A program made the position numbers and the translations under genes. DNA of 49,125 nucleotides from Catajapyx aquilonaris (Eukaryota). Below, in pieces: positions 10,211 through 48,291 of the stretch. The notes beneath the pieces are model-generated. The model ran no database searches. It had not been told where the DNA came from and saw only the letters and a program-made list of their open reading frames with translations. How positions within the stretch are numbered: the stretch's first letter is position 1; every line of letters begins with the position of its first letter. The stretch spans positions 1-49,125 of the forward strand of contig KZ538761.1 in the NCBI GenBank assembly GCA_000934665.2, given 5' to 3'.

Positions 10211-10977
10211 CAGGGTGCGCCAGAAGTAGTCTAACACGTTTGTGAATTTTTTTCTTGGTGCAGTGATTTATTAATTTGAAACTGAATGAATCACACAATA
10301 GCACATACTCTGATAATGCATCCAGGTATTTTTTTTATACATGATGCTGTGATGTCTGACTGTACAGGAGGTCACAAAACTTGTCTGCCATCACCGCCGA
10401 GGCACTCACGTAGTCGACCCTGGACAGACCTGCACACTTTGGCACAAAAGTCCGGAGAAATTGTTGCAAAGCTCTCCCGGATCTTCTCTCGTAATTGTGG
10501 AAGAGTTTTGGGCTTCTGGGCGTATACTTTCTCTTTCAATACACCCCACACAAAAAATCTGGAGGTGTCAGATCGCAGGATCGTGGTGGCCAGTCCAACA
10601 TGGCCGCCGGCGGCCATGTTGGGCCAGCATGTAGCGCTTCCCTTTTGTACCTATAAAGTTCAGCCTAGTCCGGTAGGGTCGCCACATAATTGCTCTGGGA
10701 AATGTCTCATGGCGCTCTCAGGTGAGCACCCGCTGCAAAACTCATCGGCAGGCGATAAGCTCAGAATGTAGTATAAGTGTCCGGGGGCTGCACTGAATGC
10801 GGTCCTCTAGTGACAAGCGCCCGGCCATCTTTCAGGTGGCGATGACATCGTCGCTATTGGAATCCTCAGGCACTATCGACATCGCCCCATACTATTATGT
10901 TAAAATTTTACCTGAATTGCAGTTGCGAGGACGTAAAAAAATTCTCAAACCTGTTACACTACTTCTGGCGCACCCTG
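10211..10977 (-). mobile_element. Internally deleted Tc1/mariner element retaining the transposase C-terminus
   Basis: TIR CAGGGTGCGCCAGAAGTAGT with TA flanks. Minus strand reads WPPRSCDLTP..FFVWGVLKEKVYAQKPKTLPQLREKI (frameshifted). Confidence 0.9.
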
Positions 10978-11419: not shown

Positions 11420-12324
11420 AGTCCTAACTCATGATATAGCCACATGATATAGCCTATGTATTCAGTTTCAGAGTAATAAACTAAAGGATATAAATTTCTA
11501 TCCCATTAGCACTCGAATGTAGGCCTATCATTCTGTCCGAAACCGCCCCACATCTTGTCCGGATCCACCCCATATATGGGGAGGGTTCGGACACTTTACA
11601 TAACTGCATTTAAAAATTTGTAACTTAATAATGGACTTATATAAGGACATGCCTTAGTGATAATTTTGAAGATTAAGGATGTACCATTTATGTCATGCAT
11701 AAAACGTTACTTGAGAAGGTTAAATTTAAGTATAAAAAATTAAAACGTAAAAACTGTCCGAACCCTCCCCGCTCTCCCCTATCCAAATCACAGGGGTACT
11801 GGCTAACCTACGGAACGAATCTCTGTATCTGCTAATTCAAGGCTATAAATTTTATATTCACCCATTTAATAACTGTTTGTTCACTGTGCTATCCGCCTAG
11901 TCTCGCTAGTCTCCACCATGTATTGTACACATGCTCTTTTTTAAATTTGCCAAGTAGAATACATCTTTCAGAATGGCCCAGTCCCTCCTCATAAGATACA
12001 TTATAATACTCCTCCACATTCTCTACACCAATTGTATTCCTTTTTTGTTCATTCTACCAGATTATTATGCCATGAAGATATCGTTTTACAAGCCTAATAT
12101 GTTGCTGTATATCTGGACCCCCCCCCCCCCCCCCCCNCCCCCCCTCCACCCGGTTGTTAAGGTAGCATCTGTCTTGGAGGCCTTATTACCAAACGATACT
12201 AGCCTATAGCATTTCCACTTTTCTTTTCTTTCTTTTTTCTTTCCTTTTGCTCCCTTGCATACCACAGTTTGCATATCTTCACCAATTATTTTTGCTCAAT
12301 GTATTGGAGCGTTTTCGATATATA

Positions 12325-13568: not shown

Positions 13569-14267
13569 TCACACTCCTTTGGCTGGCTGGGTGTTAAATC
13601 GGACAAGCTTGTCCAGCAGCACTTGAAGCCTTCGAGACATAATTGTGAAGGGGTCTTCCCAAAAGGAATATTTCACTTCCGCCAGTGGTGGCTCACCTAC
13701 AAAGTGGGGTGTCGTGATGCACTTGGTGTGAATATTATCCTTGGCTTCTTCCAGTTCAATGAATAATATTGAAAAGTGGTGGGGCAAAAACAGACTTCCA
13801 GGTCCCACTTCTGTTGTCAGGATGCGGGTAAGATTATTTACTTGCTGGCCACTGGTTTCCCATGACTTCAGAAAGTCAGCTACCTCCTTCATATTTAGAA
13901 GCATTTGTGCTTCTAACTTAGTCATCTCCGCTTTCAGCTGGTCTATCAAGAGGCTAATGTTGCCACCACAATTGGACACACCATCAATAAGTTGCTCATG
14001 CTCAGCCAAAAACACACGTGCCTGTAAGATGTGGCATGCCAAGTGCGTAATGTTGGAATCCTTTACAGACGGACCCGAAATTTCTTCATCTGAATCACCA
14101 AGCACGATGCATTCAATTTCGGGGGGACTTTCGGCTAGTTCCATCCCTTTTTGTGCATCATCCATGGTTCTTTCTGCACTGTCTCCTTCGCCTTCCTTCA
14201 TGCGCAGTCCTGGTAGCACATCAGACCTAAGTGGGTTAATTTTGTTGCTGTTGAAAGTTGTCTTCAA
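13569..14267 (-). CDS. Unassigned 232-codon ORF or exon with an acidic N-terminal part, a SIM-like motif and a coiled-coil-like segment
   Basis: Long stop-free frame with protein-like composition, outside any recognised TIR element. No family recognised. Confidence 0.4.
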   Translation of the reverse strand: MKTTFNSNKINPLRSDVLPGLRMKEGEGDSAERTMDDAQKGMELAESPPEIECIVLGDSDEEISGPSVKDSNITHLACHILQARVFLAEHEQLIDGVSNCGGNISLLIDQLKAEMTKLEAQMLLNMKEVADFLKSWETSGQQVNNLTRILTTEVGPGSLFLPHHFSILFIELEEAKDNIHTKCITTPHFVGEPPLAEVKYSFWEDPFTIMSRRLQVLLDKLVRFNTQPAKGV

Positions 14268-14385
14268 AATTATGAGTGCAAATTAGGACTCTCTCTTAAG
14301 AAAAAGAGCACTGTCAGTACTGTACAAGGGCCTTTCAATAAAGACTGATCATGATTTTTTATATGAGCATGTATGGGAAGTACTA

Positions 14386-21373: not shown

Positions 21374-21413
21374 NNNNNNNNNNNNNNNNNNNNNNNNNNN
21401 NNNNNNNNNNNNN
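21374..21413. other. Assembly gap
   Basis: Run of N next to poly-G tracts. Confidence 0.95.
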
Positions 21414-21641
21414 NGGGGGGGGGGGGGGGGGGGCTGTAACGCGTTCAACTCCCCGCCCCTCCCACCATGGCTTGGGTGTGCCAGTGGTTATGTCGTCGCT
21501 CTCTTTTTATAGTATATGGATAAACATCCAATACAATAATTACGTTGCTGCAGAACCTTGGGTGGAATTTTAATCCCACTGCTGGTTACTGCTAACTGAG
21601 CTATTCCAGTACCAACACTGGTACTGCTAAGTGAGAAGTAA

Positions 21642-29012: not shown

Positions 29013-30698
29013 ATATTCCTACAGAAATGAGGTTTGGACCAGCCGATTTGTTAAAGTTTTCCACATCGTCTGGTCCAAACCTCATTTCTGTAGGAGCATC
29101 TGTTCTGAAGTTATGTGCTGTTGACAATATGTAAATTGTTGGGTGCATATAAGAAGAAATTCCGCAAATTTTAAAAAATTCCAGTTCGAGTGATAATTTT
29201 TTTACATTTTTGTGGTATTTTTTTTGTGTTTGGCGTTTACTTATTGCCATAAATAAAAATCATAAAGCATGAATTCGTGATGCTTGGGGATGATGTTAAA
29301 CTTTTGACCGGTAGTGTACATTGAAAAATGAGTGGCTAACCCCTCAATTTATTACATGTGTCCCCTCCTTCTGCTACAAGACTGAAATTCCTTGGGTGGG
29401 CTATGGTGTGGCGTAGTCGTGAGAGTGGGCTGCAGGGTGAGGGTGACATTGGTAAGGTTGACATTGGTAAGGTTAACTTGGACACATTTAACCATAGAAA
29501 CAAAGTAGTGCCAGGTTGGTCACCTTGCCATTCATAGCGTCAGTACAGGCAGCACAATCCTGTCAGGGCGGTTTATGTAACCCCCTGAGTCCAGGTGTTC
29601 AAAGGTACAGTAATGTCAAAAATGGTATATATATATGAGGCATTCCACGTCAAGCGGGCCACCTTCTGACAAATCTTTGAGGACCTTGACCAAAATTTAG
29701 TGACATGTACTACTCATCGACCTATGCAGGAATCAAAATTATTATACCGCTGTATTGCATGGTTGCAGAACTACAGGGTGTCAGATGGGATAGTTTTTGG
29801 ACATTTTTGCTACGTTCGCTGTGACTTAGATGGCCATATCTCCTAGAAGGTCAGGTCAAATCTTATATTTGATATGTGCATTCGAAATATATTTTTATGT
29901 TCTGGGAGATGGTCATATCCAAAATTGAAAAATCCAAAAACTTTACATGAAAGATGGCAGCCAATATTTTGATTTTGATATTGATCAATAATAATCGACC
30001 CATACGATTTCTTTTGAATGGCACTAAAATGATCAGGGTAAGATTTACTTGAGATTTCCACAAATTGTGGAGAACCGTTTTTCGATATTCGACAAATATA
30101 AAATTATTTTAGGGTGCAAGACGCGTACGGAAAATTTACTCACCTCAATTAACAATAAATTACTCCAACTTTATAGTGATAAAAATTCATGCTGTACATC
30201 ATGAGGATGCCTGATTTAAGCACTCGACATTGGTAATAATAAAAACCGATTTTAGTAACATACTAAAAATATTAGCCGCATAAAGGTAACAGAGACATCA
30301 ATTTTTAAAAAGCCTGCATGAACTTTGTGCGGCTTATCTTTTTACCACGCAATCTAAATCGGTGTTTATTATATTCTATAGAGAGTGCTTATATCAGGCA
30401 TTCTCATAATGTGCAGCATGAATTTTTAACGCAATAAAATTGGAGTAATTTTATTGCTAATTGAGGTGAGTACATTAACGGTACGCCTTTTGCACCCTAA
30501 AATGTTTATATTTGGCAGATATTTAAAAAAAAAGTTCTCCAGATTTCCATTTTCGCACACTTTCTCTCTGGCGGACCAGCTAAAAATGCTTGAAAACAAT
30601 GTATCTCTACAGATACATTGCCAATAATTAAAGGGTTAAACCTATTATTAGCTCTCCTGTAAAATTTATAAAATGGTCTATTCGCCCTTTCTCCTTAA

Positions 30699-31445
30699 GG
30701 GCGCACGATCACGACGATTTTTCCCACTCGCGGAGGCCAAGTTGGGCCGAGGGACGGGTGCAGCGTTGTGTTCGCACCGCCGGTGTGGCCGTCTCGCTGG
30801 AGGTGCGGACCTGAAATTGTCACAGCATGGCGACGAAGAGCCAATTGAGCCTCCCGACCAAGGCTCGATCAGTTCGGATAATAATTGCGCGATCTAGAAG
30901 GGGAAGAGTTTTTAAAAAACGGGTCACGGCATCTTGGCCCAGGATGCGAATTTGGGAAGAATCTCGACGTCCCACGATGGCCTTAGCCCTCCTCTTGCTA
31001 CTCCTCCAAAGCGCGATTTTTTTGGGCCGGTGGTTTTTGCGCAAGTAGAAAAATCCCGTCACCCCCGCAACAAGTAAAATAGCCGGGAGAACTCGCTGAC
31101 GAGGAGCGGTTGGTAGTGCAACCGAGCCCCCCCACCCCACCTCAACCAACCCTACTCTCCAAGTCTTGCTTGCTGCAGGGGGGAACCGGATTGGGATGGT
31201 TTTTGGGCTAAAAGGGTACTGACGATGTCTGGTGTTCTGCGTAATCGTGGAATGCATACCATAGAGAATATCACTGAATATGACTTATACATTATTTTCC
31301 CCGGAAAATGCATTGAAGCGCTGGCCAATGGACGGAACAAATCGACTTGCTTCTTGCGGAAGCGAATCACTGCTATTTTTACTATTTCTTTCCATTTTTG
31401 TTGGTGGTGGTGGTGTTGTTGTTGTTATTATTATTATGATCGTTA

Positions 31446-31490
<45 letters not shown>

Positions 31491-32624
31491 CTAATAATGC
31501 GGTCACTCGCATTGTACGTGTGGGACCAATTTTTCTGACGCATATGCAACCAAACTTGTCAATCGAGTTCAATAATCCTTATATACCCCGGGGGTAGGTA
31601 AGTTGGGGGTCCTCCTGTCGCCTCAAGTGCTCCACCCTCTTCGGCCCTCCAGGGCGATGTGTGGACCTTCCCAGATGTCATCCAAGTGCACGAGGTCATG
31701 GGCCGATGCAGAGAAAGGGAGCAATTAGCAGGAGGACCCCCAACTTACCTACCCCCGGGGTATAAGGATTATTGAACTCGATTGACAAGTTTGGTTGCAT
31801 ATGCGTCAGAAAAATTGGTCCCACGCGTACAATGAGAGTGACCGCATTATTAGCATCATCATCATTAACGATCATAATAATAATAAAAACACCACCACCA
31901 CCACCACCACCAACAACAACAACAAAAATTGAAAGAAATAGTAAAAATAGCAGTGATTCGCTTCCGCAAGAAGCAAGTCGATTTGTTCCGTCCATTGGCC
32001 AGCGCTTCAATGCATTTTCCAGGGAAAATAATGTATAAGTCATATTCAGTGATATTCTCTATGGTATGCATTCCACGATTACGCAGAACACCAGACATCG
32101 TCAGTACCCTTTTAGCCCAAAAACCATCCCAATCCGGTTCCCCCCTGCAGCAAGCAAGACTTGGAGAGTAGGGTTGGTTGAGGTGGGGTGGGGGGGCTCG
32201 GTTGCACTACCAACCGCTCCTCATCAGCGAGTTCTCCCGGCTATTTTACTTGTTGCGGGGGTGACGGGATTTTTCGACTTGCGCAAAAACCACCGGCCCA
32301 AAAAAATCGCGCTTTGGAGGAGTAGCAAGAGGAGGGCTAAGGCCATCGTGGGACGTCGAGATTCTTCCCAAATTCGCATCCTGGGCCAAGATGCCGTGAC
32401 CCGTTTTTTAAAAACTCTTCCCCTTCTAGATCGCGCAATTTTTATCCGAATTGATCGAGCCTTGGTCGGGAGGCTCAATTGGCTCTTCCTCGCCATGCTG
32501 TGACAATTTCAGGTCCGCACCTCCAGCGAGACGGCCACACCGGTGGTGCGAACACAACGCTGCACCCGTCCCTCGGCCCAACTTGGCCTCCGCGAGTGGG
32601 AAAAATCGTCGTGACCGTGCGCCC
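30699..32624. mobile_element. TTAA-flanked fold-back element (Kolobok-like) with ~0.9-kb arms
   Basis: TTAA|GGGCGCACGATCACGACG...CGTGCGCCC|TTAA. Arms ~30699-31615 and ~31728-32624. An empty-site equivalent occurs in reverse at ~46537-46570. Confidence 0.9.
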
Positions 32625-32658
32625 TTAATGCCGACGATGGACCTTCTGCTTCTAACAA

Positions 32659-33020
32659 TTTAGGAAGAAGAGCGAATATCCATTAAATTTATTACACTTA
32701 AATAAATTGAATAATTTTCTAATACAGTGTGGAAAAAGAAATGGCGATCTGACATCATCAAGGATTCCATGTAAATATCTTCACAGTACAATATGAGTAA
32801 ACAGAAGCAACAAAAAGCAACAATGCAAGATACGATGACATCAGATTGTCGTTTGGTTTTACGCACTTTAGTGACTGTCAAAGTACATCAATGCATTGGT
32901 CCAATGCTATAAAATTTTTGAGTTTATACAGTGATACTGCGATTTGTGAGGGCAATTTTAAACCTAATATTAGCTCTCCTGTAAAATTTATAAAATGGTC
33001 TATTCGCCCTTTCTCCTTAA
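32659..33020. mobile_element. MITE with TAGGA.AAGGGCGAATA-type TIRs; family fragments also at ~30640-30698, ~46545 and ~48320
   Basis: Inverted ends ttaggaagaagagcgaata / tattcgccctttctccttaa, with repeated copies in the window. Confidence 0.6.
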
Positions 33021-33173
33021 CACCGATAATATATCAGTTTGAGTTTTCACCAGTCTTACTTAGCTGAGTCGAGGGGAAATATTAAACTCTGTATGAGTGT
33101 GTCTGTGATAGCCTCTCAATGTTGTGGGATGTTTATAAATCAGATGAGACATGATGCTCAGTGCTGTTGAATA

Positions 33174-33744
33174 CTTACAAGGGAAGTGTAAGTGTTGTCA
33201 GTGGAGTTCCTGAATGCAACTTGGCACAATAATAGTTATTAAAGACAATGCAAACAATTTAGGCGAATGCCCACAAGGTCAAAAGTTATGACCTCTCGAA
33301 CTCACAAGGGACACTTTCCAAGGTCTCGACGATTTTCTTGAAATTTGGTACAAGGGATGAAAAACGCACCTAAAGTGACCTGCTCAAAATGACCCTGTGA
33401 CCCCTTTTGGGGGCTACCAATGCACCAAATTTCAAGAAAATTGGTGAGTTTTCGGCATTTAAGACTTGATCTCTGTCCCCCAAAAAGGGGTCACCGGGTC
33501 ATTTTGAGCAGGTCACTTTAGGTGCGTTTTTCATCCCTTGGGGTGGCCTACCGATGTACCGAATTTCAAGAAAATCGGTGAGACCTTGGAAAGTGTCCCT
33601 TGTGAGTTCGAAAGGTCATAACTTTTGACCTTGTGGGCATCCGCCTAAATTGTTTGCATTTTCTTTAATAACTTACCTGCCTATATTATTGTGCCAAGTT
33701 CCATTCAGAAACTCCACGGACAACACTTACACTTCCCTTGTGAG
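33174..33744. mobile_element. Palindromic non-autonomous element of ~570 bp
   Basis: acaagggaagtgtaagtgttgtc...gacaacacttacacttcccttgt; the arms pair almost to the centre. Confidence 0.8.
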
Positions 33745-33819
33745 CTTGGCAAAAGATGAAGAGAAAAACACAAAATCCCATATTCAGTCATTTCCAAAAG
33801 AAGCTGGCAAGCATGTGTA

Positions 33820-33981
33820 CAGTGCTGGCCATATATCGAGGCAACCGCCAGCGACATTTTTCCGAAGCGGCAGAAGAAGGAATCTTGCTCGCCCGGCTTG
33901 TAGCATGCTTATCTTCGATTCCTTCTTTTGCCGCTTCGGAAAAATGTCTCTGGCGGTTGCCTCGATATATGGCCAGCACTG
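33820..33981. mobile_element. Tc1-type hairpin MITE
   Basis: TA|CAGTGCTGGCCATATATCGAGGCAACC...GGCCAGCACTG|TA. Confidence 0.9.
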
Positions 33982-34915
33982 TACCCAGGACCCATACCCT
34001 TACAGCTGGCCAGACCTCTCTCGTCCAACAGCAATGCCCTACCTTTTCCATACATTCCCCATCTACAGGGATTTCGCCCCACGGAGGCTGCCATCCTTTA
34101 CCCCTCCTCCATCCCTTCCCCCTTAGTGTATCTCCCATTTTCGACACGACTGACATTGATATGAGTGAAATTTTGACGTGACTCTACCTTCCATTGTCTG
34201 GACCCAAATGGTTACATTATTCGATGCGCAATTAAAATGCAAAGGTGTTTCCTCAAGGTCTTACGCACATTTCACCACATACCACGCAGCAGCAACTGAA
34301 GAGGAATGTGCCGGTAGTACAGGTCCACGGTACAGGACACACTGGGACACACTCTGCTCGTTCCACCACGGATCCAGGCAAGTGCGTGAAAGCTTCCTGG
34401 TCGAGGTCGACGCTGGCTGCTAGTGACTCATCAGCACCTGAGCCTTTGTTCCTGCAAGACCCTAGCAGTGAGTGGGAGGAAGTCAAGGAGGAGGGGTCAA
34501 AGTGCAGCTCTGCACCGTCTGCACCACGCCACCACGCTGTCTGCCTGCCCGCCAAAATGCCAGATCGTGTGCCAGATTGCCAGATGATCCGGATCTGAAC
34601 GCACCCACGGGCCTTTCCTCCTCCTCCCCCTCCCCCGACGGAACGTCCCCCCCGTTCGCATACAGTAAATGTTTTTGTCAAATCATTGGTTTGGTATAAA
34701 CGTAAACTTGAAGAAGTAATTTTTAAAAGGGAATTATAATGCAACTGAAACTTTTCATGTATGTCAAAGGCCTTCACTTGGCAACTCTGTCCCGTGGCGA
34801 GAGGTTAAGAAGGCCATGGTTTAAGAGTTGCAACCTGAGGGTACCGGGTACGTGTGTTCGTTCTCCTCTTCCGGCTGCCCCGTGTCGTTGCCTGGACGTT
34901 AGGTACTCCCTAAAT

Positions 34916-35347
34916 CAGTGGTTCTAAACCTTTTCGGGCCTCCGCACCCCTTTGAAGACAGTTGGTCCTTGTCGCACCCCCTATACCAGGGGTGATTCAT
35001 TCAGTTCATGAATGAATCACCCCTGGTATAGGGGAGAGCTTCATAGTTAGACTAAGTCTAGAGCAGCGGTTCTCAAACTGTGTTCCGCGGAACCCTAGGG
35101 TTCCGTGACACCAGCATAGGGGTTCCGCAAAAGATTTGGAAAATATAAAAAATAAATTTTTGTACCTAAAAAACAATAGCATGATTGGCTTGAAAAAAAA
35201 TTTAACATAACCTTGCCCTAATACTTATAGGTATTCCTAGCACAAATTACGAGTTAAGATTAGGGTTCAGGGTTCCGCGAAAGAATTATGAGGTAAATAG
35301 GGTTCCGCGGCCCAAAAAGTGAGAACCGCTGGTCTAGAGAACCGCTG
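34916..35347. mobile_element. hAT MITE, outer element
   Basis: CAGTGGTTCT...AGAACCGCTG, flanked by 8-bp ccctaaat / ccctaaag. Confidence 0.75.
35064..35331. mobile_element. hAT (Charlie-like) MITE, inner element
   Basis: CAGCGGTTCTC...GAGAACCGCTG with a perfect 8-bp TSD GTCTAGAG. Confidence 0.9.
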
Positions 35348-35750
35348 CCCTAAAGAATGTGGATCCACCTGGGGTGCAAAGGATTCCAGTTTTGTGTCTG
35401 TTTGGATTTGGACAAATATATTGCATGTTGATATGAATGCAGTGCAATATGTCATACCTTTTAACATTTTCTCTCTCTCTCTCCCTCTCTCTCACTTGGC
35501 TGATAGTGTAGTGGGCATACAAGTGAAACACTCCCAAGTCCAAAAAAAAAAAAAAACAGTTTTGAGATCATGGAATTGACCTTGCCCTTGCTTAGACCCA
35601 CATGCTAGTGAAGGCAGAAAATCCCGGCTTGCTGGCTCATCATGAAACTTTATGACTAAATGGACTTGACTAGGCAGCATAGCAGTAAAGATGCGACTTC
35701 AGGGGGGTTAATTGTAAACATGAGTTAAGATTAACTATGAAGTTAGTCTA

Positions 35751-36001
35751 TATGAAGACCTCAAGGGGAGAATAACCAAGGTCCACTTTTGGTCACACAT
35801 GAGTTACATATCTCAGAATATAGTTTCACTAGCGTAGAATATGATGGTTTGTTCATGATTGTGGAGTAATGATCATAGGTCACTAGCTATGGAAAGCCAC
35901 GAAAGTGGGATTTACAATAGAACCGTATGGGCCTTTGAAATTTGAATATTTCAGTTTCACCTGAGGTGGACCTTGATTGTTCTTCTCCCGAGGTCTTCAT
36001 A
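35751..36001. mobile_element. MITE
   Basis: TATGAAGACCTC...CAAGGTCCAC / GTGGACCTTG...GAGGTCTTCATA. Confidence 0.7.
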
Positions 36002-36007
36002 TGTATA

Positions 36008-36555
36008 CAGGGGGTTTCAGAGTCACGGGTCAAGCGTGTGCGAGAAGGTGGGGAAAAATGGTAGGTGGCGACAACCCCGGTCGGTATTATAAAACAATTA
36101 GAAATACGGCAGTAATCAATTTAATAATACGGCAGGACGTCACATCCTTTCTGTTTGAATCGAGTGGTGCGGACTGGCAGGTTGAACCTGGTAGAGCGGC
36201 TTTTTAGCCTTGCGGGTTGCACTGAAAAAGTCGCTCTCATGCTACACCGGCAGGGTACTGTACAATGTAGTGTACTACTGTTCAGTACCCTGCCGGTGTA
36301 GCATGAGAGCGCCTTTTTCAGTGCAACTCGCAAGGCTAAAAACCCGTTCAACCAGGTTCAAACCACTGAATCTGCCAGTCCGCGCCGATCTATTCCAATA
36401 CAGGAAGGATGTGACGTCAAGCCGTACGGCCGTAACAAATAAATTGATTATACTGCCGTATTTCTAATTGTTTTATAAACCCAACCGGGGTTGTCGCCAC
36501 CTACGATTTTTCCCCACCCCCTCGCGCACGCTTGACCCGTGACTGAAGCACCCTG
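36008..36555. mobile_element. Tc1/mariner palindromic MITE
   Basis: TA|CAGGGGGTTTCAG...GAAGCACCCTG|TA; pairs to a centre near 36268. Confidence 0.9.
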
Positions 36556-37421
36556 TATACCAGAGCTAACTGTACAGGTGACCTTAAATCACGTTAATAT
36601 CCATAGTGGTGTAAATAACTCAAAACTGACAAAATAGGCCCTAGTGGACTTCTCCTGTAAGCCGACACTATGTATGATTTGTGGTTTCTCACATTCTTAA
36701 CAACATACCTCTTTGCCTCTAGCGTATGCCAGCAGTTGACACCAGCAAGACCAAGGGTCTGATTCTTCAAGATGCAACGCTGGTTGGTAGGTATTTTCAA
36801 TGGTTTTGGATTCCAAATAAGTGACAAATGAGACCAGGGCTGACTTCCTAGGCCAGGGCTATATTTGATCTTGTCTTCTGCATCCACTTTCCTATTCTTC
36901 ACGGGTGCCCCAAACGACCCTTTTGACTCGCACCACACAAGAACTGATCACTTGGAAAATCAGCGACTATCTGCACCAAGACCTCTGAGAAGTCCCAATG
37001 TAGAACCAAGAATGAGAAAAAAGGAAATGCGGCTGATAGTTTCCGTCCTTTCCCAGTAGTGGGCCAGTAAATGGATCCCATATGGTACCCTACCCCTCTC
37101 CTGCACACGACGGGGAGGGGTTCTGGTCTATTAGGCATCATTTCTTGGGAGTGAAAACATGTACAGAAAGGGTCAAGGGCCTAGCTTAGGCAGGATATGT
37201 TGAAACATTTTTATATTTGTGATATGACTGTAGTTGTATATCGTCGTGGTTCGGACAAAATTGCGCCACTGTCCGGACCCAGACTGCTGTCCCTCAGTTG
37301 AATAGCCCTGTCCTAGGCCAAGTAGAGTCTTGAGCTATATTCACAAGCATGGAATAGGAGGGTGTAACTTTTATTCTTGTGGGAATATGCAAGTCCGCAA
37401 AATAGTACTATTCAGAAATAA

Positions 37422-37776
37422 GGGGAGACGGAGTGGCGCTGCGGTAACGTGCGCGCCCACGGATGTTAAGGTTCCGGGTTCGATCCCAGCCCGGGGACAC
37501 CCCCTCGTGCAGAGTTCTGGAGTCGTCTCTGGCTTCGTCTCGGGTGGCATCTCCACAGGCTAAACCACCCGGGGAGTTCACAAAATGACCAAGCACCGTT
37601 ACCGCACTGCACTTGCACATCCCCTCCGGTCATCCTGCCCCTGGGCCCGGGCACTTCGAATATGGTTCCACAATGTATACTGTTCGATTGAAAAATAAAG
37701 GTCCGTGCGAATACCCTCTGGGTGAGCACTACCCCAACAATTATTATTATTATTATTCTTATTATTATTCTTATTC

Positions 37777-37820
<44 letters not shown>
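37422..37820 (+). mobile_element. tRNA-derived SINE, family D; its (ATT)n tail resumes at 39886-39950
   Basis: A box GTGGCGCTGCGG and B box GGTTCGATCCC. TSD TATTCAGAAATAAGG at 37409-37423 and 39948-39962. Confidence 0.85.
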
Positions 37821-37821
<1 letters not shown>

Positions 37822-37822
<1 letters not shown>

Positions 37823-39884
37823 GGCATTTTTGCGATAGAGCGGACATGAAGCGACGATTATTTTTTAAGTTGAATACCGCATTTGATCACACCAATCGGA
37901 TGCTCAGCATCTCTACTAAACATTGCCAACCTTAAAATTGGCCAGTGTTGCTGTTCTTTGGCCCCAGCTGCTCATACGTTCAACTGTGCGCGCCAAAGGC
38001 CTTTTGGTGTCTGGGGACACGAGCGGCTTTTGGCGCCTCTGTAAGCATTGCCATTCATTCGATCACTTCTCAAGTGTGTCTGTTGGATGCAGCTTGATGT
38101 CCTCTTTCGATCGGTGTGCTTAAATTGTCGGAGGGTGATCTCTGTGTGCTTCAGTTTCAGTAACTAACCAGAGTCATCCGAAAGCTTTGGTTCGTTACCA
38201 AAAATTACACAAAATTCCTGTATACACCTTATGCCAATGATTTGGAGCGTCAAACTTGGAAACCCCTGTGGGAGTCGCGTAATACAACAGTGTCCCAAGA
38301 TTCAGCCCAATTCCATACCTCCATGTATTTATTTGGACGGTAACGAACCAAGCCATTTTCCTGCCGCCGAGTGTGCTCCCTCCGATCTCGGCTCAGATAA
38401 TAAGCAAATCCACGCCCAATAATGCAGAAATTTTTATGTAATGGTTTTCAATGGCGCTGCTTTCAGATCCGATGTCAGAAATTCAAAAATCAAAATGGTT
38501 GATCCAATATGGCAGACAGCATGTGCAGAGAATTGGACAGATATGCAGTATTAGCGTCAGAATTAGTTTACGGCGGCTTTAGAGGGCTCTGATTTCAAAT
38601 TCAATGTAAAAAAGTTACAAATCAAAGTGGCGCAATGTGTTATCCTGATATGCCCTGATGCTACCGCCGATTTTATTGGGAGGAAGGGGGAGAGATGCAG
38701 CTCTTCAATAGTTCTTATTTATGATGCTGAAAACAAATTTTCACGAATCCTTCATGTTATAAACAGTTGCCTCTATTTACAATGCCACTGCAAGGTGGGT
38801 GGTCCGGAAGTTAATTGTCTCTAGCGGTCAAGGTGGCAGGTGGTGGCAGCTAGTCTTTGGTTCTTCTCAGTCATGAGAGCCTCCCGCTTTTTATAGGCCG
38901 TAAATCAAAAAAATTTGCATTTATCTGAAATTTTGCAGGTCTGAATTTATTGGAAAATTGACTGAAATGACCCATTTTCAAATACCTTCATTTATAGGCT
39001 TAGTAAATTTTTATAGATTGTCACATTATAACTCCTTATACAGTCATATGCATATGCATTACAATGTGGTGCAGCTAAAATGGCTGTGCTCAGAGGTCAG
39101 AGGTTATAAATTTTTGAATAAACCATTATTAAAATGTTTTCCCCTCTAGTCAGTTCATAACTTCATTGATGTGTCTGTGTCAGCCTGGTCCCCAAAGGCT
39201 GGTGTGTAGGCAGGCAGCACCCTTTTCATATAATGGGTTACATCTTGGTTACATCCAACATACACAATCATCACGGCATAGTCCCATGATGAGGTATAGT
39301 CAGCGATGACCAGGTCATACGACCCAGCCATCTCAATCGACCAATACACGAGAATCCTCTGATGACTGGTCAGTGTCATGATGTGTCTCGTTTTAATTAT
39401 GTACGCCCTGAAGTGGTAAAACAGCTCACAAATACTACCCGTGAAAAGGTTCTGAACGGTGGAAAATCGCACGCCTTGGTTCGTTATTTTTTTTCTTGGT
39501 TCGTTACCGAGAGTTTTGTTGCGCTACGACGCAAAGAAAAGCAGATACCGGTTTGGCAAGGTGGCCAATGGATTCCTCGCACTTTTCTTCTCTAGAGCAT
39601 CTCTATACTGCCATCAAAACCACTTAGAATTCGCAGAGTTATTACGCAATGTAACCCGGTGCAGAAATGCGTGTCCTCGAAGGTTCGTTACCGTGTTTGT
39701 TCTCGCTCCTCGGCCGCTATTGAATGATATATTTGGTGTCGGATTTGTGGCAAAATTCAGCCCTCTGTACCTGGAACTCTATAGAAAAAAAAAAGTATCC
39801 CCAACGGTTTACCACAAGCATGGAAAATCACAATGAAAGTTGAAAAAAATCGTCCGAACCTTGGTTCGTTACCGCAAAAATGCC

Positions 39885-39885
<1 letters not shown>
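37822..39885. mobile_element. ~2-kb TIR element inserted in the SINE tail
   Basis: GGCATTTTTGCG ... CGCAAAAATGCC termini; repeated TTGGTTCGTTAC motifs; (ATT)n on both sides. Confidence 0.75.
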
Positions 39886-39951
<66 letters not shown>

Positions 39952-40456
39952 CAGAAATAAGGTAGGCTTAAATCCACCTAGCCTGGGGATATCATGAGTC
40001 AAAAAAAAGTGAGACCAGGGAAGGGCGTAGTTTACCAAATAATGGAGGAATTTGTTGTGACATCACTCAACCTCTCCTTAACTGATGTCACAATACTTCT
40101 AATTCATGTGACATTTTATCACAAAACTTTTCAAGTCGCCACAATATATTTTTTGTCAGTATCATCATTTTATTATTCAAGTCCTAACACTGCATTTTAA
40201 ATGACATAATGTAATGTTCTGCTGACATTTGCATCATGGCCACGTTGAGCCTGGGACTACCCAGGAATAATTTGGAACATGCTTCTGAATAACACCTTTT
40301 AATGGCACTATAGATCCTTCCTAATATGCCCTAGTTCCCCTTATCCCCAAAATACCTGGGAACACCAACAATGTTTCTGAATATGCCCCTTTTGATATTG
40401 AGAAAGATAGAGAAGCCAACTGGCTAGTGAATTTATTTAGCTGCAGTGTGGCACTA

Positions 40457-40459
<3 letters not shown>

Positions 40460-40492
<33 letters not shown>

Positions 40493-40772
40493 TAATTCAT
40501 ACCCCATTATCAGCCTTTTTCGGCTCTTTAGGGGGGAAGTTTTCTTTTGTCTGGAACTCTTTGCTTTCATTTTACTGCACTTTTTGGGATGGGATAGGGA
40601 CGGAAGGAAGCGGCTGTGGCCTGTTAGTTACGGAAACAACTCCGGAATTTTCCTGGATGGACCGTGGGAAACCACAGAAAACCACGGTCAGAGTTGCCGG
40701 CCCCGGGATTCGAACCCAGGACCTCCCGATTAGTAGTCGGACGCCTTATCCACTATGCCAACCTGCTTCGGT
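40460..40772 (-). mobile_element. tRNA-derived SINE, family C
   Basis: Head TGGCATAGTGG / GGTTCGAATCCC; 14-bp TSD GTGTGGCACTAATT; (ATT)n tail. Confidence 0.9.
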
Positions 40773-41458
40773 GTGTGGCACTAATTTAGTGGGAGCTAAT
40801 TAGTCAGCTAGTGGCCTGAAAAGTTAGCGAAAACAGCTAATCAGCTAACGAAAAGTTAGTTCAGCTGTTAGCTGATTAGAGGAGCTAATGCCCACCTTTG
40901 ATTGCATGTAAAGTGAAGCAACGAGTGGAGAAAGTCTTATTCGGATTGTTCTAACATTCTATACTGTATATATGATGCCTTATATCGTCTGTCATAATTA
41001 AAATTTTACACTGAACTATTTTTTTCTGTCATAGTTTCCGCCTTCTAACGCATGCCTTAAAATATTATGAAAATATCATCAGTAGATCAACCTCAGGAAC
41101 AAATGGGTTAAGCAGGAACTTTAGAATTGTTACTTTTAATGGTTATCAAAAATATACATAGGTTGCCAATATTAGGTACTTTTTAACACCTGCAAAGGGG
41201 CTTGACCTGAATAAGGTGGGATCTACCATTAAAGTTTGATGCCAGTTTTTCCAATCGCCATTCCCAATAATAAATTCATTGCAATTTTGACCTTGGATGG
41301 GTGATTCCATTTGGTCTAACATTAGCAGCTAATATATTTGATAACCATTAAAAATGACAATTCCAAAGTAACTGCTTAATAATTAGTTTAATACAAAAAA
41401 TAGCTACAGCAATCAGACAAGTATTTTGGATCACCCTGTAGATATATACCTCAAATGA

Positions 41459-41732
41459 ACCGAAGCAGTTTGGAGTAGGGGATACGGTGTCCGACTGCTA
41501 ATCGGGAGGTCCTGGGATCAAATCCCGGGGCCGGAAACTCTGACCGTGGTTTTCTGTGGTTTCCCACGGTTCTTCCAGGAAAATTCCGGAGTTGTTTCCA
41601 TAATTAATAGGCCACAGCCACTTCCTTCCGTCCCTATCCTATCCCAAAAAGCGCAGTAAAATGAAAGCAAAGAGTTCCAGGCAAAACAAAACTTCCCCCC
41701 TAAAGAGCCGATAGGCTGATAACGGGGTAGGA

Positions 41733-41801
<69 letters not shown>

Positions 41802-41812
41802 ATAATAATATT
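41459..41812 (+). mobile_element. tRNA-derived SINE, family C
   Basis: Inverted copy of 40460-40772; TSD TCAAATGA; long (ATT)n tail. Confidence 0.9.
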
Positions 41813-41836
41813 TCAAATGATGACAAACTTTTCCAG

Positions 41837-42283
41837 CTTCCCATCCCAACAAAAAAGAAGAAAATCAATAAAGGTGATGAAGGCACCAAGGATAGACCTG
41901 AACATAGTCAAGTGCGAATTAAGCAAGAGCCACTTGATATTGATGTGGATGAAGGTGATGTGTTCTGCCCCGAAGTACTCTATTCATTAACTGGGAACAC
42001 GTCTTCTGCAAAGGAAGATTTCAAGGAACTCAACAAACAAGTACAAATTAATCAGGAGCCATTTGACATCGAGGAGGATGAGGGCGATGTATTCCACCCC
42101 AAGGGACTTGATGCATTAGCTGGGAACATGCCCTGTCTCCAGGAAGAAGCCACGGTAGAGAATGGCAAGGGTGGCAAAGGCAAGGGACTATCCCGCAAGG
42201 CAGCAAAAGCACCTTCTACTACATTAGAATGTGAAAGAGTTGCCAAGCCTATGAACATACTGCACACACCAGGATTTCGTCGT
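41837..42283 (+). CDS. CENPX: CENP-X-like gene, upstream coding exon (Lys-rich/acidic region ending ...MNILHTPGFRR); 5' extent uncertain
   Basis: Acceptor ttttccAG|CTT, 149 open codons, then donor CGT|GTAAGT in phase 0. GFRR spliced to ATISAVL matches the CENP-X N-terminal motif GFRKELVSRLL. In-frame ATGs at 42128 and 42251. Confidence 0.75.
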
Positions 42284-42429
42284 GTAAGTATAGTCTCACT
42301 GACAGTACTTGTACATGGCTGTATGGGTACTAGCAGCATGGAAATGGTTCGGACACTTGTCAATGGTCAGTCTGCCCACAAGGGTCTGGACCATGGTCTT
42401 AGAATACTAAGGTCTGGTCACTCCCTCTT

Positions 42430-42730
42430 ATTGCCTGCTGGGGCGTTTTGCATGAGGTGCTCACTTGAGAGAGCCATGAGACTCTTTCACTGCTACATTA
42501 TGTGGCGACCCTACCGGACAGCGCTGAACGTTATAGGTACAAAAGGGAAGATCTACATTGGGGGACCCAACATGGTCGCCGGCGGCCATGTTGGGCCAGC
42601 ATGTAGTGGCTTCCCTTCTACGTAAGTTTAGCACAGTCCGGTAGGGTCGCCACATAATGTAGCAGTGAAAGGCCGTCTCATGGCGCTCTCAAGTGAGCAC
42701 CTCATGCAAAACACCCCGGCAGGCGATCAG
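42430..42730. repeat. Intronic hairpin, transposon-derived
   Basis: Palindrome centred on CCAACATGGTCGCCGGCGGCCATGTTGG; the right half matches ~10595-10790. Confidence 0.8.
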
Positions 42731-43239
42731 ATCTGATTATAGGGGTAGTGTCCGGGGGCTGGTCTGGACCCTTTCCATGCCAATAGTACCTATAATGTCT
42801 AGAATTCCGGAATCTACCATTTTGACCTTGGGTTATTGAATTACACTGCGCGGATGATCCATGTTTCGGATTATCCTTGCATCGCCAAAACAAGGCAAAT
42901 AAATAAAAGTCTGGAAAAATGTCAATATGTCTTGCAAACAAAGAAATATAACTGACTTTTTCCAGAAGACAAACTGAAAATGTGTGGGAAGTTTCATTAT
43001 TTTGATAAAATCATATTTAAAGCAGTTTACACTATGTACAGTACCGTAGTTCATTTAAAACCTCTTAATATCTCACTTTTACGGTATCTAGAACCATTTT
43101 CCGATTATGCATGTTTTCAAATTATCTGGCAACACTTGTGCAGTCATTAGCCTGGATAATCTGGAGTACAGTGTCACAGCTCGTCACTGTAGGCACATAG
43201 AGGTTCTCCCTTATTTAGAATTGGGAAGGTACACTGCCT

Positions 43240-43358
43240 GTTAAACAGTACTCGCAAATAATTTAACCGGTGGTTGAACAGTACTCGCAAATAATTTAAC
43301 AGGAGGTTAATCAGCACTCGCAAATAATTTAACAAGAGGTTAAACAGTACTCGCAAAA
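43240..43358. repeat. 33-bp minisatellite, about 3.5 copies
   Basis: Unit gttaaacagtactcgcaaataatttaacaggag with variants. Confidence 0.85.
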
Positions 43359-44155
43359 CTAATATAAGGATGTACAAGTAGTTTTACCGTTGGGTACCGT
43401 TGTGTAGTTAATGCCTTTAAAGTTTTGTGACTTCACATCTCCTCTGCCAGTTTCAAAGAAGCAAAAGTCAGCTCGAGGGCCTCCAAATAATCCAACCTTG
43501 AGTCTGTAATGCATCGCCCATGTACAATAGGGGATAAAATCCCGTCAGAGTAAGAATCTGGGTGTGACACCCGTGCACTTTGTCTTTGCTTGCCTTATAT
43601 GCCACCATCTGACACTCTACACTTTAAAGGCTCCGTACACATTAACTATGCAACGGAGTCCAAACCTAATTGCACATCCCTAGATTAGTTTTACGAGTAG
43701 GCCTACTGTCAATCTGCCTGACGATTGTCTGTGAGAATTCCTTCACCCTGTATATTGACTGACCCTCGTAGTAACCAACTTTTATGATAATAATATTGCA
43801 GACTTGAGGCACATTTACAGCACAAGACAATTTCTGGCCATTTAATATGGTCACTGCTGAGCCCCATGAACCTTCTCAAATAATAAAAATTTGAGATATG
43901 AAATGCCAAAATTATACACATAGGTTGGAAAAGTAAAATTTTTGGCCATCATGCTTTGTCATCTCAGGCCACTCACATGTAACAAGCAGCAATTACTTAT
44001 CTCAACTACTACATATTATACCGTGACTATTTTTGGAATCTTGGAAAAATAATGATATAAGCAGAATTTTTATAAATGGTACACCTTCATCGTCTATCCA
44101 TCCACCCTGTATTTCATATCATAGTCATTCCATTCACTTCTTAATTTTTCACCAG

Positions 44156-44350
44156 GCTACCATCAGTGCTGTGCTAAAATTGGGCTTCCAGAAGAAGCAG
44201 CGCATCATAAAGAAACCGTCTCTAGTCATGATGGCAGAAGTGGTCCGCATATTCGTAATTGAAGCCTTTTTTAGAGCGATTAAGGCAGCAAATCAAGAGA
44301 GCTCAGATGCTGTTAGTGTGGAGCACTTGCTCAAAATAACACCTGGATTG
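44156..44350 (+). CDS. CENPX: CENP-X/MHF2 histone-fold exon
   Basis: Bounded by ttaatttttcaccAG| and TTG|GTAAAT. Encodes ATISAVLKLGFQKKQRIIKKPSLVMMAEVVRIFVIEAFFRAIKAANQESSDAVSVEHLLKITPGL, which is colinear with CENP-X as recalled (ELVSRLLHLHF...LMVELLKVFVVEAAVR...VDVDQLEKVLPQL). Confidence 0.9.
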
Positions 44351-44669
44351 GTAAATGTCTCCTTTGCAATCTAGCTAGTTGATAAGGGGAGGGTCAAGTC
44401 TCGTTTGCAAAGAATGAAGTGGCGAGCCCTCAAGCACAGTGGCAAGAGACGGGGTGATCCCTAAAAAATGGATGCCACATCTTAGTGACCATCTAGTAAT
44501 GTAGTAGTGCTTTTCATCTCTCTTGGGGTATACAGTATTACACAGAACATTATTAATATCGTTTCTTGTGTACAGTTCATTGAAATAGGGAAGGGGGAAG
44601 GTTTCCAAATGACAATGCTACAATGGGGGGAAACTTTGCAGCCTTGTCTTACATTATTTTCTGTTTCAG

Positions 44670-44684
44670 ATGCTCGACTTCTAA
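44670..44684 (+). CDS. CENPX: CENP-X terminal micro-exon MLDF*
   Basis: ttattttctgtttcAG|ATG CTC GAC TTC TAA in phase 0. Completes the conserved CENP-X C-terminus (LLDF*). Confidence 0.88.
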   Translation: MLDF

Positions 44685-45283
44685 TGAACATGAAACTGCA
44701 CAACAGACACTTCATGATTTATGGAACATTTAAAAATATCTGAGACTGTTGAGTACACAAGTTTTGTACACAATTGAGAGAATAATAGGAGATTCACAAT
44801 TTCGTGAAGATGGGATTAAAATCTAGGGTTTCACTGGTGTAATTGTTGTGGCTAGCAGGCTTTCAAAATATCGTGATTTTTTTTTTCCAAAGTGACCAAT
44901 GAGTGAAAAAGGTTTCATTAATTTTGCTGTTTCTTTTTGTTAAAAAAGCTTTGCAACCCACACATGCTCAACTTCCAAAACTTTGCAGGTTGTGAACTTT
45001 TTTCCCCCACTTTCTATGAAAAGCCTCATGAGGGAAGACTAATAGTCTATACCAGTTGTTCCCAAAGTTAATGGGATACTTTAGGCATGCCTATCCGACT
45101 CATATTCCTATTTAACTTAGGTTCAGCCACTACCTGCAGTGGCATGATTTTATTCTGGGTTAGCTTGTGGTTCCCGTCATCGCTGACTACCCCTTTATAG
45201 GGAAATGTCGTGATGGTGTTGTTGTTGTTGTTGTTTAAATTACCTATTTTGGCGTCAGAACCTAAATGGAATATTAGCAACTA

Positions 45284-46190
45284 CAAGGTGTGATCAAAAA
45301 GTTCCCGGACTGTCGATATACCGTGCAAACCAGTGGAGCTACGAACTTGTGACGTTAGGGGGCGCTAGGTACTTTCATCTATTAGTCTGAAAAATCTCGT
45401 CTTCATAGGTGCACATGTTTCCGAGTTTCGGCAGTTTTCTTGACACCGTGTTGTTGTGCTTCTGCGATTTTTCGAAATGGCTGATGTTAGGGAGCAAAAG
45501 ATTTGTATTAAATTTTGCTTCCAGCTCAACAAAACTTCGGTTGCAACCAACCGAATGCTGAACAAGGCTTTTTATGAGCAAGTTGTAAGACAAGCATTAA
45601 CATATGAGTGGTTTAACAGCTTCAAAGGTGGCGCGCCAAGTTCGCGGCAAAATCAACTCAATGCTGTTCATTTTCTTTGACGTTATAGGAATTGTGCATA
45701 TGGAGTTTCTCCCTCCTGGTAAAACTGTCAACAGCAAATGTTACTGCGATGGTTTGAGACGATTTAGCCTCAAATGGCCGGAGATGTGGAAGAACATAGA
45801 CTGGTTGCTGCACCATGACAATGCCGCCTGCACACACCTCAAGTGTAGTCAGGGACTTCCTGATAAAAAATAACATGACCACTGTTCCCCACCCTGCATA
45901 TTCGTTTGTCCTGGAACCACGTGATTTCTACCTCTTCCCTCAAATGAAATTTGGGTAGAAAAGGAGGCATTTTGAATCCACTAAAGAGGTCTAAGCAAAA
46001 TCGCAGCAGGTGTTGAACACACTACTGTTGGTCAAATTTTTTTTAGGTGCTTCCAAAAATGGGAAATTCGCTGGAATTGTTGTATACGTGCCCAAGGTGA
46101 CTACTTTGAAGGTGGCAGTGGAAATTAGGACTTAAAGTAAATATTAATGTTTTTATGAACACAGTCCGGGAACTTTTCAATCACACCTCG
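45284..46190 (+). mobile_element. Internally deleted mariner transposon
   Basis: TA-flanked TIR C(A/G)AGGTGTGAT..AAAAGTTCCCGGACTG. Transposase remnants EQKICIKFCF, MLFIFFDVIGIVHMEFLPPGKTVNS, LLHHDNA and PHPAYS. Confidence 0.95.
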
Positions 46191-46755: not shown

Positions 46756-48291
46756 AAACTTTGCATTTTGTGATAAAAATGTGAAACTCGGTACTCTCGT
46801 TCTTTGGACACTTATGAGCATATTTGGACGTGTGGCGATGCTGGGTGACCCAGCTGGAGGTCACTTTAGCAGGGTTGCCAAATTGAACTAGTGCAGCATA
46901 CCTTTACATGAATAAGGACCTTGCATTTGGTGATAAAGACGTGAAACGTGGTACACTAGTTCTTTGGACATATATGAACATATCTGGACGTGGAGCCACG
47001 ATGTCCGACACTGCCAGGGGTCTCTATCGCAGGATTGCCATACTAACAGACTGTGCAACATGAGTTTTTATTTGGATAGTGAGCTTGCATTCGGTGATAA
47101 AGACATTAAACTCGGTTACACCAGATATTTGGAGCCTTCTAAACATATCTGGACGTGGAGCCACGATGGCCGACCCCGCTGGGGCTCCCTATTCAAATAT
47201 AAACGCATGTTTCACAGTTTTTAAATATGGTAACCCTGCGAAAGTGATTATCAGCTGGGTTGGTGATCATGGCCCCACGTCCAGATATCTTCAGAAGTGT
47301 CCAAAGACTAATCGTGGCGACATTCACGTCTTTATCACCGACTTCAAGCTCACTATTCAAATATAAATGCATGTTTCACAGTCTGTTTGATTTTTTAAAT
47401 AAGTAATATTTGTTTATTATTATTATTTGTTTTACCCCATGATAGGCCTACATAGGCCCTGTTGGGGGGTGGTACACCACCATCAATTTTCTTGTATTAT
47501 TTTTCTTTCCTCCAGTGCAAGGAGACAGGATAGGGATAATGAGGGGGGGACACTGGTGCAGGTGCAATGTCTCAAGTTGGGGGTCGTGTGCAGTCCCTCA
47601 GGGGGCCCGTTCACCAAGATGACCCGCTGGATGCTGGTCAGAAACCCCCCACCGACACTGCATCTCCTCATGGACAGGACAAGGGTAGGAAAGGAAGGAA
47701 GCGGCTGTGGCCTATTATTTAGGAAGCAATCCCAGAATTCTCTTGGGGGGACCGTGGGAAACCACAGAAAACCACGGTTATGATTGCTGGGCCCGGGACT
47801 CGAACCCAGGACCTCCCGATTAGCAGTCGAACACCTTATCTACTCCACAAACTGCTTTGGTAGTTTGTTGAATTTGGCAACCCCGCGATAGTGAGCTCCA
47901 GCGAGGTGGGCCATTGTGGCTCCATGTCCAGATATGTTCAGAAGTGTCCAAAGAACTAGTGCACCGAGATTTTTACGTCTTTATCACCGAATCGAAGCTC
48001 CCTATTCAAATAGAAATGCATGTTGCGCTTGTCAGATATGGCAACCCAGTGAGTGACTCACAGCGGGGTTATCCATCGTGGTCTCACTTCCAGACATGTT
48101 CATAAGTGTCCAATGACCAATTGCTGCGAATTTCAAGTTTTTATCACCGAATGCAATGACCTAATTCATGTAAGGTCTGCGTTGCATCAGTTGGATTTGG
48201 CAATCCCGCGAAAGTGACCTCCAAATATGCACAGAAGTGTCCAAAGAATGAGTGTCCAGAGTTTCATACTTTTATCCCAAAATGCAAAGTT
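46756..48291. mobile_element. Fold-back element built from diverged direct sub-repeats in each arm
   Basis: Unit ttgcatt.ggtgataaagac.tgaaac...tctttggacac recurs near 46760, 46920 and 47085, and in reverse between ~47230 and 48290. Confidence 0.7.
47392..47861 (-). mobile_element. Chimeric SINE: family C head with a family B-like 3' part
   Basis: 47690-47861 matches 40600-40772, while 47432-47600 resembles 18732-18920. Confidence 0.75.

Follow-up and report, generated by a model that had tools for sequence, protein, structure and literature searches.

The stretch of DNA analysed here, 49,125 nucleotides (nt) of Catajapyx aquilonaris (GenBank assembly GCA_000934665.2, contig KZ538761.1, positions 1 to 49,125 of the forward strand; hereafter the window), carries a gene for CENP-X (MHF2; STRA13 in human naming). 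The window is eukaryotic in character, with GT-AG introns, repeats resembling short interspersed nuclear elements (SINEs), mariner repeats and many trinucleotide microsatellites. On the plus strand, 41837-42283 translates into 149 residues without a stop, ending in GFRR, 44156-44350 into 65 residues running from ATISAVL through PGL, and 44670-44684 into MLDF and a stop codon. Spliced together, these three exons form an open frame of 218 codons, and translation reproduced the coordinates and the frame given in an initial annotation made from the letters alone. At 42251, 138 codons past 41837, an ATG stands in frame with the extension before it. Together with two upstream exons seen in transcript data, the CENP-X gene would comprise five exons, U1 (to 34847), U2, E1, E2 and E3 (from 44670), with GT..AG ends at every intron (Table 1). 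Judged from its sequence, the product is apparently an unusual CENP-X variant, in which 143 extra residues stand before the usual 80.

CENP-X is among the smallest and most uniform of the kinetochore and Fanconi-pathway subunits. Among the subunits of the CENP-T-W-S-X and MHF complexes as known, it is the one that lacks a tail, and structural models of CENP-T-W-S-X and FANCM-MHF take it as a bare histone fold. By homology, the locus encodes a genuine CENP-X. E2 alone scores 49.9 bits against the Pfam family PF09415 (E 4e-13, profile positions 3-70 of 74), for a cut-off of 25 bits, so that the CENP-X call of the initial annotation passes this check. The best solved relative of E2, compared like the other solved histone folds by sequence only, is chicken CENP-X 3b0b_C (E 4.4e-07; query residues 2-64 on chain residues 13-75 of 81), and the human CENP-X structures 4ndy, 4dra and 4e44 are matched at E about 2e-05. 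A search of a representative library with E2 gave only four weak matches (E 3e-4 to 6e-4).

The spliced product was also compared by BLASTP with 28 CENP-X proteins, 26 of which align at E <= 1e-3. The alignments start at residues 150-178 of 223 in 25 of these 26 and at residue 135 in the remaining one, and most span residues 150-157 to 219-223. The homology bridges both the GFRR-AT and the PGL-MLDF junctions (26 of the 28 proteins) and stops short of the extension. The conserved GFR(K/R) start and the L-x-L-D-F or LLDF-type end are both present and are reached across the splice junctions. Residues 144-223 are a CENP-X of canonical size, whereas the 143 residues in front of them are shared by no compared CENP-X. 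By analogy with CENP-T-W-S-X and FANCM-MHF, the C-terminal histone fold would be expected to pair with CENP-S.

Transcript evidence comes from the public run X1, for which the type of library is not recorded. Of the words sampled from exon 41837-42283, it contains a fraction of 0.82, and its contigs were aligned to 32700-45300. A 512-nt contig crosses two joints with GT..AG ends, 34846/7 to 36722/3 and 36785/6 to 41836/7, and is then identical to 41836-42227 (0 differences). Another contig, 276-nt-long, begins 6 letters upstream of 44156, matches 44156-44349 with 0 differences, crosses the joint 44349/50 to 44669/70 at GT..AG and continues 76 nt beyond the E3 junction. As X1 contigs skip GT..AG introns, the run was read as derived from complementary DNA, and a splice into 41837 from upstream exons therefore exists. 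The acceptor that the initial annotation had placed at 41836 is a pyrimidine-rich site and is used in this spliced contig, where the junction runs from 36786 to 41837. Further upstream exons, which had also been suspected, were seen as U1 and U2, although they add only five codons.

Table 1. Features of the CENP-X gene and its surroundings in the window.
Feature	Position	Strand	Basis and remarks
U1, 5' untranslated, non-coding	34792-34847	+	Spliced contig; 5' end open, the contig begins here
U2, 64 nt	36723-36786	+	Both joints in one contig; upstream ATG 36726, TGA 36760-36762, ATG 36772-36774
E1, extension part, 138 codons without a stop	41837-42250	+	Translation, spliced contig, coding signals
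Acidic module, copy A	41909-42018	+	Direct repeat, codon alignment, dN/dS
Acidic module, copy B	42038-42147	+	Direct repeat, codon alignment, dN/dS
E1, ATG at the canonical position (C at -3) and first 11 conserved CENP-X codons, to the GFRR donor	42251-42283	+	Homology crosses the junction
E2, 65 codons, CENP-X histone-fold core	44156-44350	+	PF09415, 3b0b_C, transcript contig
E3, final four codons MLDF and TAA	44670-44684	+	Contig joint, translation; aligns with the LLDF ends of CENP-X proteins
SINE-like repeat, then (ATT)n microsatellite, in the intron adjoining the 41836 acceptor, outside the mRNA	41459-41814		blastn copies, sequence

U1 and U2 are almost entirely 5' untranslated region (5'UTR). 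U1 contains a three-codon upstream open reading frame (uORF), ATG-GTT-TAA at 34816-34824, the TAA of which (34822-34824) also acts as a stop in the main frame. In U2, an out-of-frame ATG at 36726 opens a 31-codon uORF ending at 41869-41871, the main frame has a TGA at 36760-36762, and an in-frame ATG with A at -3 is found at 36772-36774. The longest open reading frame (ORF) on the spliced mRNA starts from this last ATG and has 5 + 149 + 65 + 4 = 223 codons; it extends no further in the 5' direction because of the in-frame stops TAA 34822 and TGA 36760. Between this ATG and the one at 42251 come ten others, of which nine are out of frame, and the context at 42251 is weak (C at -3). With a leader so crowded with ATGs and so weak a context, a scanning ribosome would rarely reach the canonical start. 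From the spliced mRNA, ordinary scanning would give the long protein or uORF peptides, not the 80-residue form. In the transcript form seen, no AUG with a good context precedes that at 36772, and translation would presumably begin there.

The extension, 41837-42250, is most likely protein-coding, as three signals within the sequence suggest. Stop-free frames of 138 codons begin elsewhere in the window at 259 of 47296 plus-strand positions (0.55%) and 189 of 47296 minus-strand positions (0.40%), and when the exon was shuffled by mononucleotides, such a frame arose in 3 of 20000 cases. The remaining five frames of the extension stretch have 3 to 16 stops each. Base composition differs among codon positions (chi2 33.4, p 9e-6), the first being G-rich and the second A-rich; this chi2 is reached by 0.24% of 1243 background windows of the same length, and the coding sequence of the CENP-X core gives 19.3 for comparison.

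The duplicated acidic module reported in the initial annotation is present as a direct repeat, whose copies A and B are 74% identical. They are spaced by 129 nt, which equals 43 codons, and the duplication keeps the reading frame. In place of orthologs, these tandem modules were compared with each other to estimate the ratio of non-synonymous to synonymous substitution rates (dN/dS). The 19-codon module core has a dN/dS of 0.08, with 7 synonymous and 5 non-synonymous changes; 9 of the 12 differences fall on third codon positions (binomial p 0.004). The ratio rises to 0.25 over 30 codons and to 0.46 over the whole 43-codon unit, and reading the modules in the two shifted frames gives 1.1-2.2. 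Synonymous sites between the modules are near saturation (dS 0.76-1.5), and a low core dN/dS at such a dS implies long constraint since the duplication. The two acidic modules of the tail would be kept by purifying selection.

The extension has a KKKK basic patch, already noticed in the initial annotation and present in the translation, the two tandem acidic modules and a Gly/Lys-rich basic patch beside the histone fold. The net charge of the tail is +4 over residues 1-20, -5 over residues 41-60, -6 over residues 81-100 and +3 over residues 121-140. Module A starts with psi-K-x-E followed by acidic residues, presumably a SUMO-type consensus; module B has N for that K. A single-sequence AlphaFold2 model of the extension has a mean predicted local distance difference test score (pLDDT) of 51.3 and a predicted template modelling score (pTM) of 0.11, and its only secondary structure is one three-residue turn. 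The model is compatible with an intrinsically disordered extension. Against Pfam, the extension gives only a sub-threshold chance match (12.3 bits vs 25). As in core histones, CENP-T and the C-terminal tail of CENP-S, a disordered charged tail on a histone fold could modulate the binding of DNA or partners. The Gly/Lys patch is reminiscent of histone tails in composition only; the extension has 0 matches among PDB sequences at E <= 10.

Other origins or extents of the exon were considered and rejected. The initial annotation had proposed a lineage-specific extended or fused CENP-X. The extended form is probable, with its coding signatures, whereas a domain fusion was discarded: the Pfam, protein, ESM Atlas and PDB searches gave no second domain, the extension matching no other family and having no confident fold. 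E1 matches only itself within the window and holds no copy of the flanking SINE or intron repeats, and a transposon or repeat origin was rejected within the window because the exon is unique there. Read-through beyond the donor at 42283, in a 300-codon frame to 42625, was rejected as coding, since it enters a palindromic repeat that recurs at 10595-10790.

Longer CENP-X proteins are found in databases, with 25 at E <= 0.001 among 5517 candidates of 152-2000 residues. Entries named "centromere protein X isoform X1/X2" and fusion entries (152-875 aa) are similar to the product described here in having a C-terminal histone fold behind extra sequence, and two unnamed transcript-derived ORFs are among the long entries. 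Those from vertebrates are, however, automatic isoform predictions, several of them joined to an adjacent RRM or TMC gene, whereas the upstream splice here is seen in a transcript contig. A literature search found no paper on an N-terminally extended CENP-X. In PMC7333888, the "N-terminal extension" concerns CENP-O/P, not CENP-X.

The reading that we favour, at a probability of roughly 0.58, is that of a lineage-specific CENP-X, in which the 223-codon ORF from 36772 codes for a disordered 143-residue N-terminal tail on an ordinary 80-residue CENP-X. The protein would consist, in this order, of five codons from U2, 138 lineage-specific codons and the ordinary 80-residue CENP-X. Such a tail would add nuclear targeting, or would control through its charge how DNA or partners are bound. 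It is a more tentative and rather doubtful proposal that CENP-X here gained a selected 143-residue tail, with a patch resembling a nuclear localization signal, a SUMO-type motif and a histone-tail-like patch, which would provide a new regulatable DNA or chromatin contact for CENP-T-W-S-X or FANCM-MHF. If the extended form is indeed under selection, a CENP-X subunit can bear regulatory or DNA-contacting tails, and the locus would be a natural test case for the effects of a tail on a nucleosome-like particle. For annotation, the corrected gene model has five exons and a presumed start at 36772; most of the CENP-X ORF here would probably be lost in an automatic call of 80 residues.

Several points weigh against this extended CENP-X. 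All solved CENP-X chains have 74-84 residues, and a bare histone fold of ~80 residues is obtained here only if the start is 42251, not from the transcript-supported 223-codon ORF. Two uORFs stand ahead of ATG 36772, and the second of these overlaps that ATG. The upstream splice was found in one low-depth contig (depth about 3) of one run. Among the contig pieces listed, none covers 42228-42283 or links E1 to E2; this gap reflects shallow data and is not evidence in itself, and the true 5' end of the transcript is likewise unreadable from contigs. No listed piece joins 42227 to 44156, and a single continuous mRNA molecule with both the extension and the histone-fold exons is inferred. The dN/dS of 0.08 comes from a short core, as do the other module values from small samples, with boundaries set after viewing the alignment, and an acidic repetitive composition by itself inflates the codon-position statistic. 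A single-sequence AlphaFold2 model, often poor, says only that there is no confident fold.

Searches for relatives of the extension add to these points. None was found at E <= 0.01 among proteins of 81-261 aa (31 candidates) or at E <= 0.1 among proteins of 262-2000 aa (514 candidates). The ESM Atlas gave no usable match, and 0 of 594 pattern matches in metagenome contigs were confirmed; the blank against PDB sequences was mentioned above. None of the long CENP-X entries, mostly automatic vertebrate predictions, resembles the extension by BLASTP. The collections searched are mostly microbial, and these blanks say little on animal relatives and are weak evidence of novelty.

The main alternative to the extended protein, which we consider unlikely, is that the protein is the 80-residue CENP-X from ATG 42251. 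The segment 41837-42250 would then be a long, possibly regulatory 5'UTR of one transcript form, the main mRNA arising from an unseen promoter near 42251, and the locus would hold a CENP-X gene of the ordinary kind, behind a long 5' leader rich in AUGs. This agrees with the 74-84 residues of CENP-X in every solved structure, with a homology that begins only at residues 150-157 of 223 in most alignments, with an extension lacking relatives in the collections searched and with the uORFs upstream of ATG 36772; transcript starts, moreover, cannot be read from contigs. However, a UTR has no cause to stay open for 138 codons in the exact frame of CENP-X, and it would produce neither the codon-position bias nor the frame-specific synonymous excess between the modules. 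The ten ATGs that intervene on the spliced form before 42251, and the weak context of the latter, are also difficult to reconcile with such a start.

That the extension is translated and yet functionless is improbable. It would be a young, lineage-restricted, exonised or duplicated sequence which is tolerated, while the histone fold does all the work. A dN/dS well below 1 in the module core, at a dS of 0.76-1.5, argues for constraint instead, even if the extension is an orphan sequence (proteins, ESM Atlas, metagenomes) of low complexity without a confident fold, was built in part by a recent internal duplication, and begins at an acceptor, 41836, which a SINE and a microsatellite abut.

It is more improbable still that U1, U2 and 41837-42227 are part of another transcription unit that overlaps this one, or of a chimeric assembly, unjoined to the histone-fold exons. 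In favour of this, the contig that carries the upstream joints stops at 42227, none of the listed pieces connects it to 44156, and X1 is shallow (contig depth about 3). Against it, the frame runs stop-free into the 11 conserved CENP-X codons of E1 that homologs require, and the E2 contig begins 6 letters ahead of 44156, which is what a splice would give. Moreover, read-through at the 42283 donor would lead the frame into the palindromic intron repeat, and the upstream exons show no sign of any other domain or gene.

Repeats surround the CENP-X exons. The SINE-like element is present three times in the window, at 40459-40772 (-), 41459-41769 (+) and 47682-47861 (-), with 82-92% identity. Of these, the first two lie as an inverted pair in the intron just before exon 41837, where 40459-40772 is, by blastn, an inverted copy (92%) of the SINE-like repeat at 41459-41814; a tRNA-Ser-like head was detected in the inverted copy by ARAGORN (40695-40766). 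X1 contigs on the SINE-like copies have depths of hundreds to thousands. The intron between E1 and E2 contains, at 42426-42731, a palindromic element similar to miniature inverted-repeat transposable elements, with a self-complementarity of 82% and its copy at 10595-10790. Just downstream of the gene, 45444-45873 is a degraded fragment of a mariner (Mos1-type) transposase, with HTH_48 (E 2e-4) and Transposase_1 (E 9.6e-10) in different frames. A Pfam scan of 10 neighbouring ORFs returned mariner fragments only.

Just downstream of U1, a 685-nt minus-strand X1 contig ends at 34927-35043, within a short palindromic repeat, with a 33-nt skip at 35009-35043 lacking GT..AG; it may be a repeat-derived or antisense transcript. 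Elsewhere in the window, non-ACGT letters comprise one ambiguous base at 12137 and a 41-nt run at 21374-21414, probably an assembly gap. The 237-codon open frame at 13569-14282 (-) has a protein-like composition and 0 Pfam matches, and it may be an exon of some other gene. A large inverted repeat occupies 30695-32628, its arms (30695-31478 and 31845-32628) being 784-nt-long and 95% complementary. It contains a nested pair (31479-31592 and 31752-31865) and (GAT)n-type microsatellites, and may represent a palindromic duplication or two head-to-head repeat copies.

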